Shown piece by piece: positions 3,477-21,030 of a stretch of 47,641 nt of DNA. The position numbers and the translations under genes are program-made. The notes below the pieces were generated by a model. The model had not been told where the DNA came from. It saw nothing but the letters and a program-made list of their open reading frames with translations, and did no database searches. Source of the DNA: an uncultured Planctomycetia bacterium (GTDB lineage: Bacteria; Omnitrophota; Gorgyraeia; Duberdicusellales; Duberdicusellaceae); NCBI GenBank assembly GCA_964634935.1, contig CAZWJT010000005.1:137128-184768 (forward strand), written 5' to 3'. How positions within the stretch are numbered: position 1 is the first letter of the stretch; every line of letters starts with the position of its first letter.

Positions 3477-5096
3477 TCACATCTTTTCGGGTGCTTCAAC
3501 ATCAAGAATACCAAGACCAGTTCTGAGCGTCAGACCAACACCACGAATCAAGGCAAGTCGAGCCTCAGTTACCTTTTCATCTTCGGAAATCACGCGAACC
3601 TGTTCGTAGAAAGAGTGGAATGCCGCAGCTAAATTCTTTAAGTACTCCGCGATCGCATACGGCTCCCGGGTCATTGCGGCAATCTGAATAGCCCTTTTGA
3701 AGAAAACAATCTCCTTCACAAGCTTCAGCTCTTCCGGGCGCTCTAAGATACTCACCGCTGCCGCGCCTACCGGATGGTTAACTTTCGCTAAAATACTCTG
3801 AATGCGTGCGTGAGCGTATTGAATATAATAGAGTGGGTTATCAAAATTTTTTTTCTTTGCCTGTTCAACATCAAAATCAAGCTGCGACGAGTTCTTGCGA
3901 GTCAGATAGAAAAATCTTGCCGCATCTTTTCCAACATCGTTTACCAAATCTCGAAACAGCACCATCGTACCTGCCCTTTTCGACATCTTAATATTTCCTT
4001 TTAAGCTTACCAGCTGAATAATCAGAATTTCTAAAGGCGGGGTACACCGGCAGTACGCTGCAACGGCAGCCTTCACACGTTGAATATACCCATGGTGATC
4101 AGGACCCCAGAGATTGATAAGACGAGAAAAACCTCGTTTTAACTTATCAGCATGATAAGCGATATCCGCAGAAAAATAAGTGTAATTTCCATCGCTGCGT
4201 TGCACTACGCGGTCTTTATCATCACCGAAACTGGTCGAACGGAACCAAAAGGCACCCTCCTGTTCATAAATCAACCCTTGATTTTTTAAGTCGGCAATTG
4301 CCTCCTGGATACGATTGGTTTCGTATAAATTCTTCTGGCTCACCCAACTGTCAAAAGCAACTCCCACCGCTTTGAGATCTTTTTGGATAAACTCCAACAT
4401 TACCGCCAGCGCGCGAGAACCGATATCAGACTGAGAATGATACCCTTCAGAGAGCAATTGCTGCGCGATATCCTTGACGTATTCACCGTGATATCCATTC
4501 TCTGGTATCCGACAATCCTTTCCTTCCTGTTCGCGCATACGCTGCCTGACCGATTCAGTATACGCATCGATCTGAGTCCCCATGTCGTTGATATAATACT
4601 CGCGGGTAACTTCAAACCCGACAAAGGAAAGAAGCCTCCCGATAACATCCCCTACTACCGCTTGTCGCCCATGCGCGACTGAGAGCGGACCTGTAGGATT
4701 CGCGCTCACAAATTCAAGAACAACTTTCTCAGAAAACTTCCTGAGAGCTCGAAAAAACAGCTCCCCCTGCTCCAAGCATAAAGCGAGCTCTCTCTTTAAT
4801 GCTTGATCTGAGAAAAAAATATTGATGAAACCCGGCTGAACAACCGTTATGTCTTTAAGACAGTTTTTGTCCTGTCCGAGCTTCTGAAGTATCTCCCGAT
4901 GAATAGCCTGAGCAACAGCGAAAGGGTTTTGCCGGGTTCGAGAAGCTATCTTTAACGCGATTGCCGAAGAAACATCTCCAAATTCAGCTTGAAGGGGACG
5001 CTCCAAAATAATAGGAAGATCGGAAGAATTCGTAAAGAGCTCCCGGACAACTTCGGCCAAAAGCCCCTCAGTGAACGCAAAGATATCTCCGTTCAT
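3477..5096 (-). CDS. argS: Arginine--tRNA ligase
   Basis: EFVSANPTGPL..HGR, YYINDMG, DDKDRV, YFSADIAYH, WGPDHHGY, KMSKRAG and YIQYAHAR. Start ATG 5096 overlaps the rsfS stop (TAATG); the ORF track starts at 5126. Confidence 0.96.
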   Translation of the reverse strand: MNGDIFAFTEGLLAEVVRELFTNSSDLPIILERPLQAEFGDVSSAIALKIASRTRQNPFAVAQAIHREILQKLGQDKNCLKDITVVQPGFINIFFSDQALKRELALCLEQGELFFRALRKFSEKVVLEFVSANPTGPLSVAHGRQAVVGDVIGRLLSFVGFEVTREYYINDMGTQIDAYTESVRQRMREQEGKDCRIPENGYHGEYVKDIAQQLLSEGYHSQSDIGSRALAVMLEFIQKDLKAVGVAFDSWVSQKNLYETNRIQEAIADLKNQGLIYEQEGAFWFRSTSFGDDKDRVVQRSDGNYTYFSADIAYHADKLKRGFSRLINLWGPDHHGYIQRVKAAVAAYCRCTPPLEILIIQLVSLKGNIKMSKRAGTMVLFRDLVNDVGKDAARFFYLTRKNSSQLDFDVEQAKKKNFDNPLYYIQYAHARIQSILAKVNHPVGAAAVSILERPEELKLVKEIVFFKRAIQIAAMTREPYAIAEYLKNLAAAFHSFYEQVRVISEDEKVTEARLALIRGVGLTLRTGLGILDVEAPEKM

Positions 5097-5431
5097 TATA
5101 GAACGACCCTTTCTGCCTCTTCCCACAAATTTTCCAGATTGTAGAACGCGCGGGCATCTTCCAAAAATACATTAAAGGCAACATCATAAAAATCAACCAA
5201 AGCCCATCGCTGTGTATCAATCTCCCGATGATGCACGTCTATCTTCTGCTTCTTTGCTTCACTGATCACTTCTTTAGCGATTGCTTCAATCTGTCGTTCA
5301 GAAGAAGCTGAAACAATAACAAAATAATCCCAAATATTATTTACCTTCCGAGTATCCAGAATAACAGGATCCTCCGCTTTTTTTAATAACGCAAAACTCA
5401 GTATCTTTTTTGCTTTTTGACGGCTGGTAAT
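5096..5431 (-). CDS. rsfS: Ribosome silencing factor RsfS (Iojap/YbeB family), 111 aa, apparent ATT start; absent from ORF track
   Basis: Manual translation: ITSRQKAKKILSFALLKKAEDPVILDTRKVNNIWDYFVIVSASSERQIEAIAKEV...WALVDFYDVAFNVFLEDARAFYNLENLWEEAERVVL*. KKAED, DYFVI, WxLVDxxDV and RxFYxLExLW are RsfS hallmarks. AGGAGG lies at 5442-5437, 5 nt before ATT. Confidence 0.92.
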   Translation of the reverse strand: MTSRQKAKKILSFALLKKAEDPVILDTRKVNNIWDYFVIVSASSERQIEAIAKEVISEAKKQKIDVHHREIDTQRWALVDFYDVAFNVFLEDARAFYNLENLWEEAERVVL

Positions 5432-5467
5432 ACTATCCTCCTTTTTTAGAATTTCTTCCTGTTTTAC

Positions 5468-6739
5468 CTAAATAAACTTCTGAACCATGCTCTCTATATT
5501 CTCGCGCAGCCCCTGATCGTGCGAAACGATAACACTCACCTTCATCTCAGAAAAACGGAAAAGGCTACGCGCTACTTTTTGGATGCACGCGGGAGTAACC
5601 GCAAGAATTTCTTTTTCCACCGAACGAGGAGAATAAAACTTTCCAAAATTACAGATACTTTCTCCTGCATAGAACATCGCCTGAAGAGAATCTTCCAAAC
5701 TCATAAAAAAATTGCCCAAGAAATAATCCTGAGCCCGCCGTAATTCCTGTGCGCCAACCCGCTGTGTTTGCATCCGCACAAGCTCCTGAAGAATCATCTC
5801 AAGGGCGCGCTGAATGTTTTTTTCATCAAGTCCAATATGAATATTAAAGGCTCCCGTGTCTTGAAAAAGCTTTACCTGAGAAGAAACATCATACGCTAAA
5901 CCCTCTCTTTCCCGCAAGCTCTCAAAAAGCCTACTCGACATATTTGCCCCCAAAATAATATGGATGAGCTGGGCAGCAAATCTCCAAGGGTGGAAATAAT
6001 TAAATGCCGGAAATCCTAGCGCCAAATGAGTCTGTTGAAACGTTGATCTTTCAACCTGGATAGCCCGCCCGGGAGAAAAAGATGCGGGCAAAAAAGAATT
6101 TTCGAAACCTTGCGCTAATTTTCCGAATTTTTTCTTTACCAGGGTAACAATCTTGGCATGTTCATTGCGATAGGTACAGGTCACTAATATGTTACGGCCG
6201 GTGTAGTGCTTTCTCTGGAAGTCAAGGATGTCATCCTGATGAATCGCTTGCACTGTCTCGCTTTTTCCTGCTATATCCTCGCCTAAAGGATTATTCCTCC
6301 ACGAAAGACTGTCGAGGTTACTGATGACCTTCGCCGAAGGCATGTCGTTATACATTTTTAACTCTTCAAGAATCACTGTCCGCTCTTTTTCTAAATCTTC
6401 CAGCTTCACAAGAGGCACAAGCATCATATCTGACAAAATATCGAACGTAATCGGCAAATTTTTCTCCAGCACTTTCGCATAAAATGCGGTAAGCTCATGA
6501 GAAGTGAAAGCATTCAACGTCCCGCCACGCCCCTCAATTTCTTCTTTAATTGCCCGGGAAGAATAGGAAGCGCTCCCCTTGAAAACCATGTGTTCGAGAA
6601 AATGGGCAACGCCCTTGACCTGAGCGGCTTCAAACCGAGCCCCGGCACGCACCCAAATACCAATCGAGGCTGACTTACAATGCGAGGTTTTTACCAGCGC
6701 AATTTGCACTCCGTTACTCAAATGAATTATTTGAACCAT
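5468..6739 (-). CDS. M16-family (pitrilysin/insulinase-like) zinc peptidase
   Basis: Inverted zinc motif HFLEH, then GGTLNAFTSHE, EELKMY and SSRLFESLREREGLAY. Confidence 0.93.
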   Translation of the reverse strand: MVQIIHLSNGVQIALVKTSHCKSASIGIWVRAGARFEAAQVKGVAHFLEHMVFKGSASYSSRAIKEEIEGRGGTLNAFTSHELTAFYAKVLEKNLPITFDILSDMMLVPLVKLEDLEKERTVILEELKMYNDMPSAKVISNLDSLSWRNNPLGEDIAGKSETVQAIHQDDILDFQRKHYTGRNILVTCTYRNEHAKIVTLVKKKFGKLAQGFENSFLPASFSPGRAIQVERSTFQQTHLALGFPAFNYFHPWRFAAQLIHIILGANMSSRLFESLREREGLAYDVSSQVKLFQDTGAFNIHIGLDEKNIQRALEMILQELVRMQTQRVGAQELRRAQDYFLGNFFMSLEDSLQAMFYAGESICNFGKFYSPRSVEKEILAVTPACIQKVARSLFRFSEMKVSVIVSHDQGLRENIESMVQKFI

Positions 6740-6745
6740 ATTTCC

Positions 6746-7531
6746 CTATGATCCTTTAAGCCAAATAGCGAATTCGCGCAGCTTTTTAAGAAAATTTTTG
6801 TCCTTCTCCCATGCGATAATTTTTTCGACTATTGCGCTCCCGATAATGACTCCATCAGAAACATGCCGAAATGCATCAGCTTGCTTCTGATTGGAAATAC
6901 CGAAACCGACGCATAACGGTTTTGTAAGATGTTTTCTCACGAGCCGGATGTGGTCAAAGATTTCCTGAGCAAATTCACGCTGGGTTCCCGTAGTTCCCAC
7001 GACTGCCACATAATACACAAATCCGCTTGAAGCTTTGTCCAAATCCGGGATTCGGGAAAATTCGGTTGTAGGAGTAGCAAAAAAAATTGTATCCATGGAA
7101 TTCTGGTGCGCGGATTGAATGAATTTCCCGGCTTCGGCATACGGTAAATCGGGAACGATAACGCCGTCAAGAAGGCCGCGTGCCTGAGAAAAAAAACGCC
7201 CTTCAGGCATGGCAAAGATAGGGTTGTAATAACTCATCAGAATGAGCGGGGAAGAAAGATGTTTTTTTTCTTTTTTCAATACGGATAAAAGACCTGTTAG
7301 GGTTACCCCCTGCTTCAATGCCCGCGAACTTGCCTGTTGTATAATCCTACCGTCAGCAATAGGATCGGAAAATGGCATTCCCAGTTCAATAAGATCAGCT
7401 CCGGCTTCAACCAGGGTATATAAAATATCAATACTCCTCTGTATGGTAGGAAAACCAAAAATCAAGAAAGGGGCAAAGGCTTTTCTTCCTTGGGCTTTCA
7501 GAACTCTGAACTTCTCAGAAACTCTACCCAC
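6746..7531 (-). CDS. trpA: Tryptophan synthase alpha chain
   Basis: [39 protein letters not shown] and DGVIIGSA. Likely GTG start at 7531 overlapping the trpB stop (ORF track 7597). Confidence 0.96.
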
Positions 7532-8708
7532 GCGTTTTCTCCCTGTATTCGCCAACAGTATGTAAATCTTTATCTCCTCGACCAGAAAGACAAACAACTA
7601 CTAAAGAATTTTTCTTGAGAGTTTTTTGCAAAACTCTTAGATAAAATATGGCGTGAGCTGATTCAAGGGCAGGAATAATCCCTTCAATCTCAGAAAGCAT
7701 CCGAAAACCAAGCAACGCTTGCACATCAGATACTCCAACATATTCAGCACGCCGCATTTCTTTGTAAAACGCGTGCTCCGGCCCCACCCCAGGGTAATCA
7801 AGTCCAGGGGCGATCGAATATGCTTCTTGAATCTGGCCGCTCGGAGTTTGCAAAACATAAGACTTTGCTCCATGGAGAATACCAAGCTTACCCTTCATGA
7901 GTGAAGCCGCATGGTGTCGAGACGATACCCCCTGGCCGGTTGCCTCCACCCCAATACATCGCACCGCCCGATCATAAAAAAAAGGATGAAATAAGCCTAA
8001 GGCATTGCTCCCCGCACCAACACAGGCCAACAAAACATCAGGAAGTCGTTTTTCTTTACGAATGATCTGACGGCGAACTTCACGACCGATTACTGCCTGA
8101 AAATTCCGTACCATCGTTGGGTACGGATGAAAACCAATAACTGAACCGAGCAAATAGTAAGTATCGTAAACATTTCGAATCCAATCACGCATCGCCTCGC
8201 TGCAAGCGTCTTTCAGGGTTTGTGTTCCGCTCAAGACAGGATGAACCTTTGCTCCAAGAAGTTGCATACGCAACACATTCATCTTCTGTCTTTCAATATC
8301 AAGTGCACCCATATAGATTTCGCAGGATAATCCAAAAAGCGCACAGACTGTTGCCACCGCAACACCATGCTGTCCAGCACCAGTTTCTGCAATAATTCGC
8401 TTCTTCCCCATACGCTGCGCTAAAATCCCCTGAGCAATGGCATTATTAATCTTGTGGGCTCCTGTGTGGAGCAAATCTTCTCGCTTGAAGTAAATGTTGA
8501 AACCAAGCTTTGCGCTCAAATTTTTTGCATAGTAGAGAAGTGTCGGACGATGAGCATACTCTTTCAGGTAAAAATCAACTTCTTTGAGAAACTGAGGATC
8601 TCGTTGATACCGCTTATATGCCTGCTCTAGTTGCCTTGCAGCATATTCGAGCGTCTCGGGAATAAACTTCCCCCCGAATTTCCCAAAATATCCAACCTTA
8701 TTACTCAT
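7524..8708 (-). CDS. trpB: Tryptophan synthase beta chain
   Basis: [15 protein letters not shown] (PLP lysine), [19 protein letters not shown] and LSGRGDKD. Start ATG 8708 has GGAGGG upstream (ORF track 8732). Confidence 0.97.
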
Positions 8709-18486: not shown

Positions 18487-21030
18487 TTAGAAATCCTGAC
18501 GCTCTGCCTGAAGCCAGTTCGCTCCGGCTTTGAGCGTAACCCGCAAAGGAACCTTCAGCGACACAACATGTTCCATAACCGAACGGATTGTCTTCAAAGC
18601 TTGATCCCGCTCGTGCGCAGGAACATCAAAAACCAATTCATCGTGTACCTGCATTAAAAGTTTATAAGAACTGCTCTCCTTTTCAATCCTCTGGTAGATA
18701 TCTCTCATCGCTAATTTAATAATGTCAGCCGCGGTCCCTTGAACAGGAGCGTTGATAGCCTGCCGAGAAAGCGCCTCTTGGAGAGCGCGATTAACCGTCA
18801 TCATGTTCTCCATATAACGCCTCCTTCCAAAAAGAGTCTCGACATATCCTTTTTCCTTTGCTTGCGCAATAGTCCTATCGAGAAAACTTCTCACCTCAGG
18901 GTAACGCACGAAATATTCGTCAATAAACCTTTGCGCATCAGCGAACGAAATCGCTAATTCTTTCGCCAACCCATGAGCCGTCATTCCATAAATAATTCCG
19001 AAATTGATCCGTTTTGCAAAATCGCGCTTTTGGGCGTCAATTGTCTCCTCTGGCTCGCTAAAAAGCAATGAAGCGGTAAAAGTATGAATATCTCTGTCTT
19101 TCTGGAATGCATCAACTAAATTCTTATCTTCAGAAAGATGGGCAAGAACGCGCAGTTCGATCTGAGAATAATCAGCACTTACGATATATCCCTCCGGAAA
19201 TTGGGAAATAAAAGCGCCTCGAACCATGCGCCCAGTTTCATCGCGTATAGGAATATTCTGGACATTGGGAGAAGTTGCGGAAAGTCTTCCTGTTTGCGTG
19301 GAAACCTGAGAAAAAACAGGAGATAAAAATCCATTCGCCCCTTCCGCCTGTTTCACAAACGGCTCAAGATAAGTGCTGACTAACTTATGAATTTTGCGGT
19401 ACTCAAGGAGCAGAGCAATAATCGGATGAGCCGTGCTTAACTTTCTCAGCGTCTCCTCATCGGTAGAAAATCCTGTTTTTGTACGCCTCAATTTCGGGAG
19501 CCGTAAATCCATGAAAAGAACTTCAGCAAGCTGCTGAGGAGAATTTAAATTAAACTCTTTCTGAGCGAGCTTATGGATACGGGAACGAAGCTGAACAATT
19601 TTTTCAGCCAACTGTTTCTGCATTTTTTTAAGAAAATCAACATCGACGCGGATCGAATTTACACGCATCCAGCTTAACACGCTCACCAGGGGCATCTCAA
19701 TCTGAAAAAAGATAAAAGCGAGACTCTGCTCCCGAATCTGCTGATCCAGAATGCGGTATAATTGTTCAATGATAAAAACAGACTCTTCTGACTTCAACGT
19801 GTCTGCTTGTTTCAAATACTGCCTGCTGATATCTTCAAGGGAATATTCGGAAAAATCCGGGCGCAATACATAGCTTGCCACCATGACATCAAAATATGGA
19901 TTTCTCAAAACAATGCCATGATTATGGAGAAAAACGATACCTTCTTGTAAACCCCAAGAGATTTTTCTGATTGAATTATCTTCAAAAATTATTTTGAAAA
20001 AAGAAATATCTTCACACACAAGTTTTCCGTTGTACACACAGTATACCGTCGCTTGGTCTAAATAAAAAACGAGTTCCCGGTTCTTTAGAACAGCGTCTCT
20101 CAAGGCATCCGTAGCCCGCTGCGCAGGAGCACAAGCAGAATGGGCAACTACCGGATTTTTCATCTCGGCTAAAAATTGTTTAAACCCAAGTTTTAGGAAC
20201 AGCTCATAAAGTCGAGGTTCGTCTTTTGGTTGTATGGTAAATCCGCTCATAATATCTCCAGAAAACTGCAGATCATAGCGCAAAGTCGCTAGTTCTTTGC
20301 TCAAAAAGACCATTTCTCGATGCTGCCGAAGAATATTCTGCACCCTTTCCGGCTGAATCATGTCTATGTTTCTAAAAATCTCTTCTACGCTGCCAAATTT
20401 TTGGATAAGCTCGGTTGCCGTTTTTGGACCGATTCCCCGAGCCCCGGGGATATTATCGCTTGTATCACCACACAGAGCCAAAAAATCAACGACATATCTT
20501 GGTACAACCCCCAGTACGTCTTGAACTCTATGAACATCAAAAAAAATCTCTTTTGAAGGGTTATAAACCACCGTATGGTCGTTCACGATTTGCAAGATAT
20601 CTTTATCTGAAGTAATCGCAACTGAGAAAAGACCCTCTTTCTCAGCCTTACGAGCAAGGGTCGCAATTAAATCGTCTGCTTCAACCCCCTCTTGTTGGCA
20701 AAGAGTAATTCCCCAGAAACCTATAAGCTCTTTAATAATTCCTATTTGTATTTTCAGGGCATCAGGCAAAGCCGGCCGCTGAATCTTATAGGCGGAAAAT
20801 TTTTCGCTTCGGAATGTCTTACGCGACACATCGAAACATATCCCCATAAACACCGGGTTAAATCTATGAATGAGCTTGCGCAGAATATTTACAAATCCAA
20901 AAACTGCATTCGTCGGTATTCCATCGGGTGTCGTAAGACCTTGGATTGCATAAAAACTCCGAAAGCAGAAGGATGTTCCATCGATGATATAAAAAGTCCT
21001 TTGATTATCTATCGTTCTCTGGTCAAACAC
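18487..21030 (-). CDS. polA: DNA polymerase I (5'-3' exonuclease + polymerase; short, apparently non-catalytic 3'-5' exo region)
   Basis: IIDGTS..RSFYA, EADD, TSDKD, GDTSDNIPG, TGRLS..PNVQNIP, ADYSQIELR, AKRINFGIIYG and QVHDEL; GTG start. Confidence 0.97.
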   Translation of the reverse strand: MFDQRTIDNQRTFYIIDGTSFCFRSFYAIQGLTTPDGIPTNAVFGFVNILRKLIHRFNPVFMGICFDVSRKTFRSEKFSAYKIQRPALPDALKIQIGIIKELIGFWGITLCQQEGVEADDLIATLARKAEKEGLFSVAITSDKDILQIVNDHTVVYNPSKEIFFDVHRVQDVLGVVPRYVVDFLALCGDTSDNIPGARGIGPKTATELIQKFGSVEEIFRNIDMIQPERVQNILRQHREMVFLSKELATLRYDLQFSGDIMSGFTIQPKDEPRLYELFLKLGFKQFLAEMKNPVVAHSACAPAQRATDALRDAVLKNRELVFYLDQATVYCVYNGKLVCEDISFFKIIFEDNSIRKISWGLQEGIVFLHNHGIVLRNPYFDVMVASYVLRPDFSEYSLEDISRQYLKQADTLKSEESVFIIEQLYRILDQQIREQSLAFIFFQIEMPLVSVLSWMRVNSIRVDVDFLKKMQKQLAEKIVQLRSRIHKLAQKEFNLNSPQQLAEVLFMDLRLPKLRRTKTGFSTDEETLRKLSTAHPIIALLLEYRKIHKLVSTYLEPFVKQAEGANGFLSPVFSQVSTQTGRLSATSPNVQNIPIRDETGRMVRGAFISQFPEGYIVSADYSQIELRVLAHLSEDKNLVDAFQKDRDIHTFTASLLFSEPEETIDAQKRDFAKRINFGIIYGMTAHGLAKELAISFADAQRFIDEYFVRYPEVRSFLDRTIAQAKEKGYVETLFGRRRYMENMMTVNRALQEALSRQAINAPVQGTAADIIKLAMRDIYQRIEKESSSYKLLMQVHDELVFDVPAHERDQALKTIRSVMEHVVSLKVPLRVTLKAGANWLQAERQDF

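Follow-up and report, generated by a model that had tools for sequence, protein, structure and literature searches.

The 47,641-nucleotide stretch of DNA analysed here over its whole length, hereafter the window (contig CAZWJT010000005.1, positions 137,128 to 184,768), comes from an Omnitrophota bacterium from sludge, and nearly all of its genes lie on the minus strand. Among them is the operon trpA-M16 peptidase-rsfS-argS-recJ, the third gene of which belongs to the RsfS family, whose members bind uL14 of the 50S ribosomal subunit and block the joining of the subunits (PMC3400551, PMC7125091). Directly after the TAG stop codon of the M16 gene (5470-5468) follow 123 stop-free codons (5467..5099, minus strand), and their translation matches the Pfam profile RsfS (PF02410, also known as DUF143 or iojap) at full length (residues 21-115 against positions 2-98 of 98; E-value 5.3e-25; 87.9 bits with a cut-off of 21.6). 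The first in-frame ATG, GTG or TTG is the GTG at 5269-5267, which is codon 67 after the TAG and codon 55 counted from the ATT discussed below, and a gene caller applied to the locus yields a 57-amino acid (aa) fragment only. That a complete RsfS domain is present here with no canonical start codon between the TAG and codon 55 had been claimed in an earlier note on this DNA, and is borne out. The M16 stop shares the frame of rsfS and lies 36 nt ahead of the ATT; no promoter-like or terminator-like site was found in the gap between the two genes, and a search of the window against Rfam detected only two tRNAs, both away from rsfS. The overlap between the rsfS stop and the argS start suggests translational coupling and hence a translated rsfS frame.

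The best candidate for the missing start is an ATT codon behind a Shine-Dalgarno (SD) sequence, AAGGAGG, and the coordinates given for the two in the earlier note (5431-5429 and 5443-5437, separated by 5 nt) proved correct. The spacer reads ATAGT (5436-5432), and the duplex between the SD and the anti-SD has an energy of -11.6 kcal/mol for the ATT at 5431, a value that, like all energies below, was obtained with a generic 16S tail, and the starts of the relatives are likewise deduced from their sequences. The leader around this ATT is A-rich and unstructured (z = 0.74), and no RNA structure that would sequester the ribosome-binding site of rsfS was found. The spacing fits the range of 4-8 nt that had been reported for other genes of the window and that our measurements reproduce: AAGGAGG precedes the ATG by 4 nt in rpmE (L31), and by 6 nt in both rho and a TPR gene, and AGGAGG precedes it by 8 nt in yebC. 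AAGGAGG occurs 10 times in the window, always on the coding strand; apart from the copy at rsfS there are nine, of which six, including those of rho, rpmE and the TPR gene, stand 3-6 nt ahead of an ATG, GTG or TTG. Because the total does not exceed that in shuffled sequences (10 vs 6.8, both strands), what speaks for the SD is its strand, place and spacing rather than the number of copies. The ATT stands at functional SD spacing in the place where orthologs start, and no other gene of the 47-kb window has a long start-less open stretch for which overlap by an upstream gene provides no explanation. Two further near-cognate codons downstream, ATA 5404 and CTG 5401, were considered and rejected, because an SD is absent ahead of them (-0.1 kcal/mol) and a start there would cut into the domain. 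Elsewhere in the window, polA (18487..21030) contains an internal AAGGAGG (18820-18826, minus strand) followed after 6 nt by an in-frame ATG, 108 codons before the stop, possibly an internal SD-like site or an internal start.

If numbering begins at the ATT, the 111-aa product and RsfS proteins of solved structure line up with no offset: its residue 16 is matched to the residue of the same number in the proteins from B. halodurans (2o5a) and S. aureus (6sj6), and its residue 18 to residue 18 of the E. coli protein. The PDB matches (2o5a, E-value 4.5e-18; S. aureus 6sj6, 1.3e-17; M. tuberculosis 4wcw, 1.2e-10; the E. coli 7bl2 group, 2.9e-8) are all collinear and in register, and the product is a single-domain RsfS homolog of the size of this family (about 105-125 aa). 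Starts were compared by anchoring the sequences at window residue 21, where the Pfam domain begins, which places ATT 5431 at position -8. In L005, L017, L019, L027, L031, L032, L034 and L051, among which L005 is a syntenic Omnitrophota locus, a TTG located precisely at -8 is the sole or the best canonical start; the same codon is ATA in L025, L158 and L090, and CTG in L169. By homology, the window protein would be expected to bind uL14 and to block subunit joining. It differs from the characterised RsfS proteins in a His to Asn replacement in the ...VxHxF... motif, which it has in common with its best relative (L002, described below).

The base calls at this start are reproducible. The Logan contig of sequencing run X1 is identical to the window in the 5' region of rsfS, and contigs of four runs from three studies (X1, the short contigs of X2 and X4 from a second study, and X5 from a third) show zero differences over 5373-5475 or more, a range that covers both the SD and the ATT. 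The check at 5429 thus returned ATT, not ATG, in the contigs of all four runs. The sole strain single-nucleotide polymorphism (SNP) in rsfS, at 5285, is synonymous (GAA to GAG).

Given this evidence and the comparison with relatives presented below, we consider it probable (roughly 0.8) that the locus carries a functional rsfS gene initiated at AUU 5431 behind a strong SD. The AAGGAGG, at its distance of 5 nt and in a leader that is A-rich and free of structure, would position the ribosome on AUU 5431-5429, the initiator tRNA would read this near-cognate codon as fMet, and the strong SD would offset the weak codon in part. In E. coli, AUU, AUC, AUA and CUG initiate at 1-2% of the AUG level, and the other 57 codons at 0.1-1% (bioRxiv 10.1101/063800); the near-cognate codons found in rsfS are exactly these four, against which initiation factor 3 (IF3) is established to discriminate in E. 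coli. Because IF3 rejects near-cognate codons, the basal output of RsfS would be expected to be low and to rise when IF3 activity per 30S subunit drops. Sensitivity to IF3 would be an expected consequence of such a start, which might serve as a control loop or simply hold RsfS at a low level.

Table 1. Features of the window rsfS locus, and SD sequences with near-cognate starts in the window rsfS and in related loci
Feature	Position	Strand	Description	SD energy (kcal/mol)
M16 family peptidase gene, upstream	5468..6739	-	Pfam Peptidase_M16 and M16_C	
Alternative in-frame ATT	5450..5452	-	Ile-6, position -15; weak SD-like AGGAAG	-4.3
SD AAGGAGG	5437..5443	-	5 nt upstream of ATT	
Proposed AUU initiation codon	5429..5431	-	Ile-13 of stop-to-stop frame; -8 relative to Pfam domain start	
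rsfS coding sequence as proposed	5096..5431	-	ATT start, 111 codons, TAA 5098-5096; Pfam, PDB register, synteny	
First canonical codon, GTG	5267..5269	-	would give a 57-aa C-terminal fragment, losing more than half of the RsfS domain	
argS, downstream	3477..5096	-	ATG 5096-5094 overlaps rsfS stop (TAATG, 5098-5094)	
Window rsfS			AAGGAGG+5 nt+ATT	-11.6
L015 rsfS			TAGGGGGT..ACC ATT	-10.5
L016 rsfS			GGGAGGG..ATT GTT ATC	-11.8 (for ATC)
L018 rsfS			GGGGGTGCC ATC ATC	-12.9
L169 rsfS			AAGGAGGAG+4 nt+CTG at -8, the codon of the window ATT	-11.6
L025 rsfS, outside clade			GGAGGTGCGAT ATA ACC TCT CGA at -8	-13.1
L158 rsfS, outside clade			GAGGTGATAAGAA ATA at -8	-10.1
L090 rsfS, outside clade			AAGGAGGTGA..ATA at -8; canonical codons all without SD	-15.6

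The closest relatives were sought through both rsfS and argS. The best argS matches are metagenome-assembled genomes of Candidatus Omnitrophica/Omnitrophota (~50% identity), and the best RsfS relative, L002 (GCA_027007805.1), is 59% identical and shows the same trpA-M16-rsfS-argS-recJ order. A protein word-index search with the window RsfS alone gave one distant match, and a profile of three sequences was dominated by RsfS of the Chloroflexota type. A scan of contigs of GTDB species representatives with an alignment of four RsfS sequences retrieved 80 loci (a two-sequence version was too specific and found none), a metagenome scan contributed at least 80 loci, mostly from other phyla, which served as the control set, and further loci came from the contigs of the top argS homologs. 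Altogether, the rsfS 5' regions of 163 loci, including the window, were scored, and a clade of 19 loci, again with the window, was defined by synteny with trpA and M16. The location of rsfS directly upstream of argS is widespread beyond the Omnitrophota (L017-L085), being found in Ignavibacteria, Krumholzibacteriota, Zixibacteria and WOR-3.

Near-cognate starts recur among these relatives. The starts deduced for the 19 trpA-M16-rsfS loci are ATG in seven, GTG in one, TTG in six and non-canonical in five, and three more distant loci outside the clade combine an SD with ATA (Table 1); one of these, L090, probably belongs with the other two. No AUG, GUG or UUG is present upstream of the conserved core in the window, L015, L016, L018, L025, L158 and L169, and the open reading frames (ORFs) of all the listed near-cognate loci bear the full RsfS domain. 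The protein of L025, a locus labelled Planctomycetota with the context trpA-HisPhos-rsfS-argS, would begin with Met-Thr-Ser-Arg like that of the window. Across the entire set, a canonical rsfS start is missing in 9 of the 163 loci (about 5%), a fraction that reaches about a quarter in the Omnitrophota clade. These nine include L030 (66% GC) and L149, two loci with no clearly recognisable start codon, canonical or not, that do not enter the totals given for near-cognate starts backed by an SD. Two other loci, L088 and L125, are additional near-cognate candidates. In L149 (positions 100-200), a strong SD (AGGGAGGG) comes right after an in-frame TGA, with no ATG, GTG, TTG, ATH (H, any base except G) or CTG before the domain (AGT CCT TTA GAA...), and a two-codon 'ATG TGA' adjoins the SD. 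In L088 (1465-1530), AAGGAGG occurs within the putative N-terminal region, in the same place as the window SD, and is followed 7 nt on by ACG ACT TCT AGA (Thr-Thr-Ser-Arg); the candidate starts of this locus are an ATT just past the stop (SD GGGGGT) and a TTG with no SD.

The near-cognate codons are associated with unusually strong SDs, the mean energy being -11.7 kcal/mol compared with -5.9 kcal/mol in the relatives with canonical starts (Mann-Whitney p = 0.0009). An in-frame AUH with an SD of -10 kcal/mol or stronger is found in just 9 of 152 canonical-start loci, and among these nine, three (L042, L044 and L133) have the AUH beside a real ATG and four are L088, L090, L125 and L030. The near-cognate genes also appear to be maintained by selection. 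The RsfS proteins of L015, L016 and L018 are 78-88% identical, synonymous divergence (dS) among their genes is saturated at about 1.25, and the ratio of non-synonymous to synonymous divergence (dN/dS) is 0.06-0.13, which indicates that these are functional genes that have kept SD and AUH through a long divergence. On this reading, near-cognate starts became fixed several times among these lineages, in every case with an unusually strong SD. Homologous starts in relatives and recurrence in related lineages extend the claim, itself strongly supported, that a real and complete rsfS gene starts here with AUU.

The neighbors of rsfS show no comparable trend. Loci lacking a canonical start number 0 of 16 for M16 and 0 of 31 for argS, and the comparison of rsfS (5/19) with M16 (0/16) gives p = 0.049; trpA could not serve as a control for canonical starts, as its ORF in the window is over-extended at the 5' end. 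Under the best-SD rule, the rsfS starts in 162 loci (L002-L172) are ATG in 43%, TTG in 38% and GTG in 15%, with none in 5%, and TTG is the sole canonical option in 36 loci, compared with 81% ATG and 6% TTG for argS, and 88% ATG and 0% TTG for M16. In the 28 loci that contain both rsfS and argS, TTG starts rsfS in 15 and argS in 2 (p = 0.0003). TTG starts make up 3% of E. coli genes, and rsfS of E. coli K-12 is annotated with one, behind AGGGGG+5 nt (L173:3720-4037; NC_000913.3 668719-669036). The TTG bias relative to the neighboring argS and M16, together with the TTG of the annotated E. coli gene, points to an unusual pressure on the rsfS initiation codon, and the near-cognate starts seem to be the most pronounced form of a preference for weak initiation codons that runs through the family. 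Upstream of the E. coli gene lies cobC, which encodes a histidine phosphatase, and in L025 a His_Phos_1 gene occupies the corresponding place. Regarding the flanking genes in the window, the 549-aa argS ORF from GTG 5126 is an over-extension (5094-5126), and the longest-ORF start of trpA, TTG 7597, seems to be one as well (7510-7597), given that the Pfam domain begins at residue 30 and the relatives start around residues 19-23.

Several considerations count against initiation at AUU 5431. The locus was not found in any RNA run. The nearest ortholog, L002, starts with GTG, four codons upstream of the aligned ATT, and no closer relative was present in the databases searched. The earlier note had made its case depend on the 5' ends of orthologs, and here the outcome is divided: the orthologs do not all use ATG or GTG, and SD with a near-cognate codon recurs in 5 of the 19 syntenic loci and in 3 distant ones and is kept throughout L015, L016 and L018, but 14 of the 19, the nearest included, have canonical starts. 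The in-frame ATT at 5452-5450 may act as an additional start; its position, -15, resembles that of the -14 starts in L007, L011 and L013, and its use would leave the start still AUU. Furthermore, the sample of loci is biased towards query-like sequences. Finally, the near-cognate loci occupy different parts of a neighbor-joining tree (the window, L169, the group of L015 and that of L025/L158/L090), with mutual identities of 34-50%, which suggests at least three or four origins of near-cognate rsfS starts, or a very old retention, although a tree built from 110 aa gives no more than a rough count of independent origins.

If AUU is the start, the question is what maintains it. A simple possibility, to which we would give about an even chance, is that selection favors very low translation of rsfS, an excess of RsfS being harmful, so that TTG and the near-cognate codons are interchangeable and IF3 sensitivity is an unused by-product; in a variant of this scenario, near-cognate codons are slightly deleterious losses of the start codon that were compensated by stronger SDs. 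The continuum of start codons in the syntenic clade, the TTG preference that rsfS shows in various phyla and that extends to E. coli, and the association of weaker codons with stronger SDs all agree with such a set-point. What this leaves unexplained is the pairing of the weakest codons that still initiate with a very strong SD, rather than of TTG with a weak one; otherwise, it accounts for the same sequence data as the regulatory alternative.

That alternative, which we regard as tentative and on balance unlikely, is an adaptive homeostasis in which the near-cognate start was selected so that RsfS synthesis reports IF3 activity or the fidelity of initiation: low IF3 per 30S subunit, or leaking immature 30S subunits, would increase initiation at AUU, and the additional RsfS would cap the 50S subunits. 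In its favor, the codons are the set discriminated by IF3 and, like the AUU of infC, all follow a strong SD, and L015, L016 and L018 have alternated ATT and ATC, without any change to ATG, over a dS of about 1.25. IF3 and RsfS, parallel anti-association factors, rise together in E. coli that lacks rimM (PMC13246957), and defects in 30S assembly raise near-cognate initiation, an effect that IF3 rescues (PMC6868393). Conversely, with ATG, GTG or TTG in 14 of the 19 syntenic relatives, the arrangement is not conserved, the retention of H at the third codon position in three taxa is weak statistics, and the strong SD may merely compensate for a lost start codon. A tblastn search with E. coli IF3 found no gene for this factor in the window or in the other loci retrieved. 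It is doubtful, if attractive, that rsfS is the second family of the translation machinery, after infC, in which near-cognate starts with strong SDs were repeatedly fixed and maintained, wiring RsfS synthesis to IF3 activity. The appeal of the idea is that non-canonical starts are informative because IF3 gates them, that it joins two systems of subunit anti-association, IF3 and RsfS, shown to act together in E. coli (PMC13246957), and that RsfS would rise automatically under a shortage of IF3 or with promiscuous initiation by immature 30S subunits.

The remaining explanations deny that AUU is the start. It is very improbable that rsfS is a decaying gene, a young pseudogene that has lost its start codon or one from which the 57-aa fragment from GTG 5269 alone is made. 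The missing canonical start and the 57-aa gene call are what such decay would produce, but the frame of 111 codons is unbroken and encodes the complete domain including its conserved motifs, a perfect SD stands at the orthologous start position, and the stop overlaps the argS ATG; moreover, the single SNP is synonymous, the equivalent genes of L015, L016 and L018 are under strong purifying selection, and the fragment would be without half of the fold. Read-through or recoding of TAG 5470-5468 to produce an M16-RsfS fusion, which the common frame and the single TAG between the two ORFs might bring to mind, is scarcely credible: two ORFs share a frame by chance in one case out of three, about 11 further genes of the window terminate with TAG, rsfS has its own SD, and among the relatives the two genes overlap in different frames (L002 and L004) or are 60-120 nt apart (L005 and L015). 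A sequencing or assembly error that hides a true ATG can practically be dismissed, with four runs from three studies identical and eight other independent assemblies of the same architecture.

Whatever maintains these starts, they have a practical consequence for annotation. Because there is no canonical start, gene callers drop or shorten rsfS, as in L169:2134-2496, cut to 76 aa, and L001:2254-2427, cut to 57 aa; such genomes then look as if they had no RsfS, and protein databases under-represent these genes. A full-text literature search found no paper that ties rsfS to AUU or other near-cognate starts, and none on such starts in Omnitrophota; recent papers on RsfS do not mention start-codon control.

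The protein itself is a conventional member of its family, with the same Pfam domain, size and N-terminal register as E. coli YbeB, S. aureus RsfS, M. tuberculosis RsfS and mitochondrial MALSU1. The genomic context is different, trpA-M16-rsfS-argS here versus nadD-cobC-rsfS-rlmH in E. coli, but the annotated E. coli K-12 gene likewise has a weak, though canonical, start. Confirmed non-canonical starts are very rare in bacteria, E. coli having two, in infC and pcnB. The closest parallel is infC, the gene for IF3, also a translation factor gene in which AUU follows a good SD (GGAGG+8 nt+ATT, -9.3 kcal/mol under the same scoring) and the output of which drops as IF3 rises, given that IF3 discriminates against such codons. 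The infC product, however, regulates its own codon by direct autoregulation, whereas RsfS is a different anti-association factor that acts on the other subunit, and the broad conservation of the infC start contrasts with the patchy occurrence of near-cognate starts in rsfS (5/19), for which IF3 dependence would be expected by analogy. In E. coli pcnB (AUU), Streptomyces sigR (GUC; PMC5472188) and Enterococcus faecalis ebpA (AUU; PMC4447247), a rare initiation codon similarly attenuates expression, in the case of sigR through IF3-mediated repression (PMC5472188). These are species- or genus-level cases in genes of unrelated functions, whereas rsfS has gained AUU, AUC, AUA or CUG in several deep lineages. 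As read here, rsfS would join the known genes with near-cognate starts that are discriminated by IF3, and what is new is their recurrence within one gene family.

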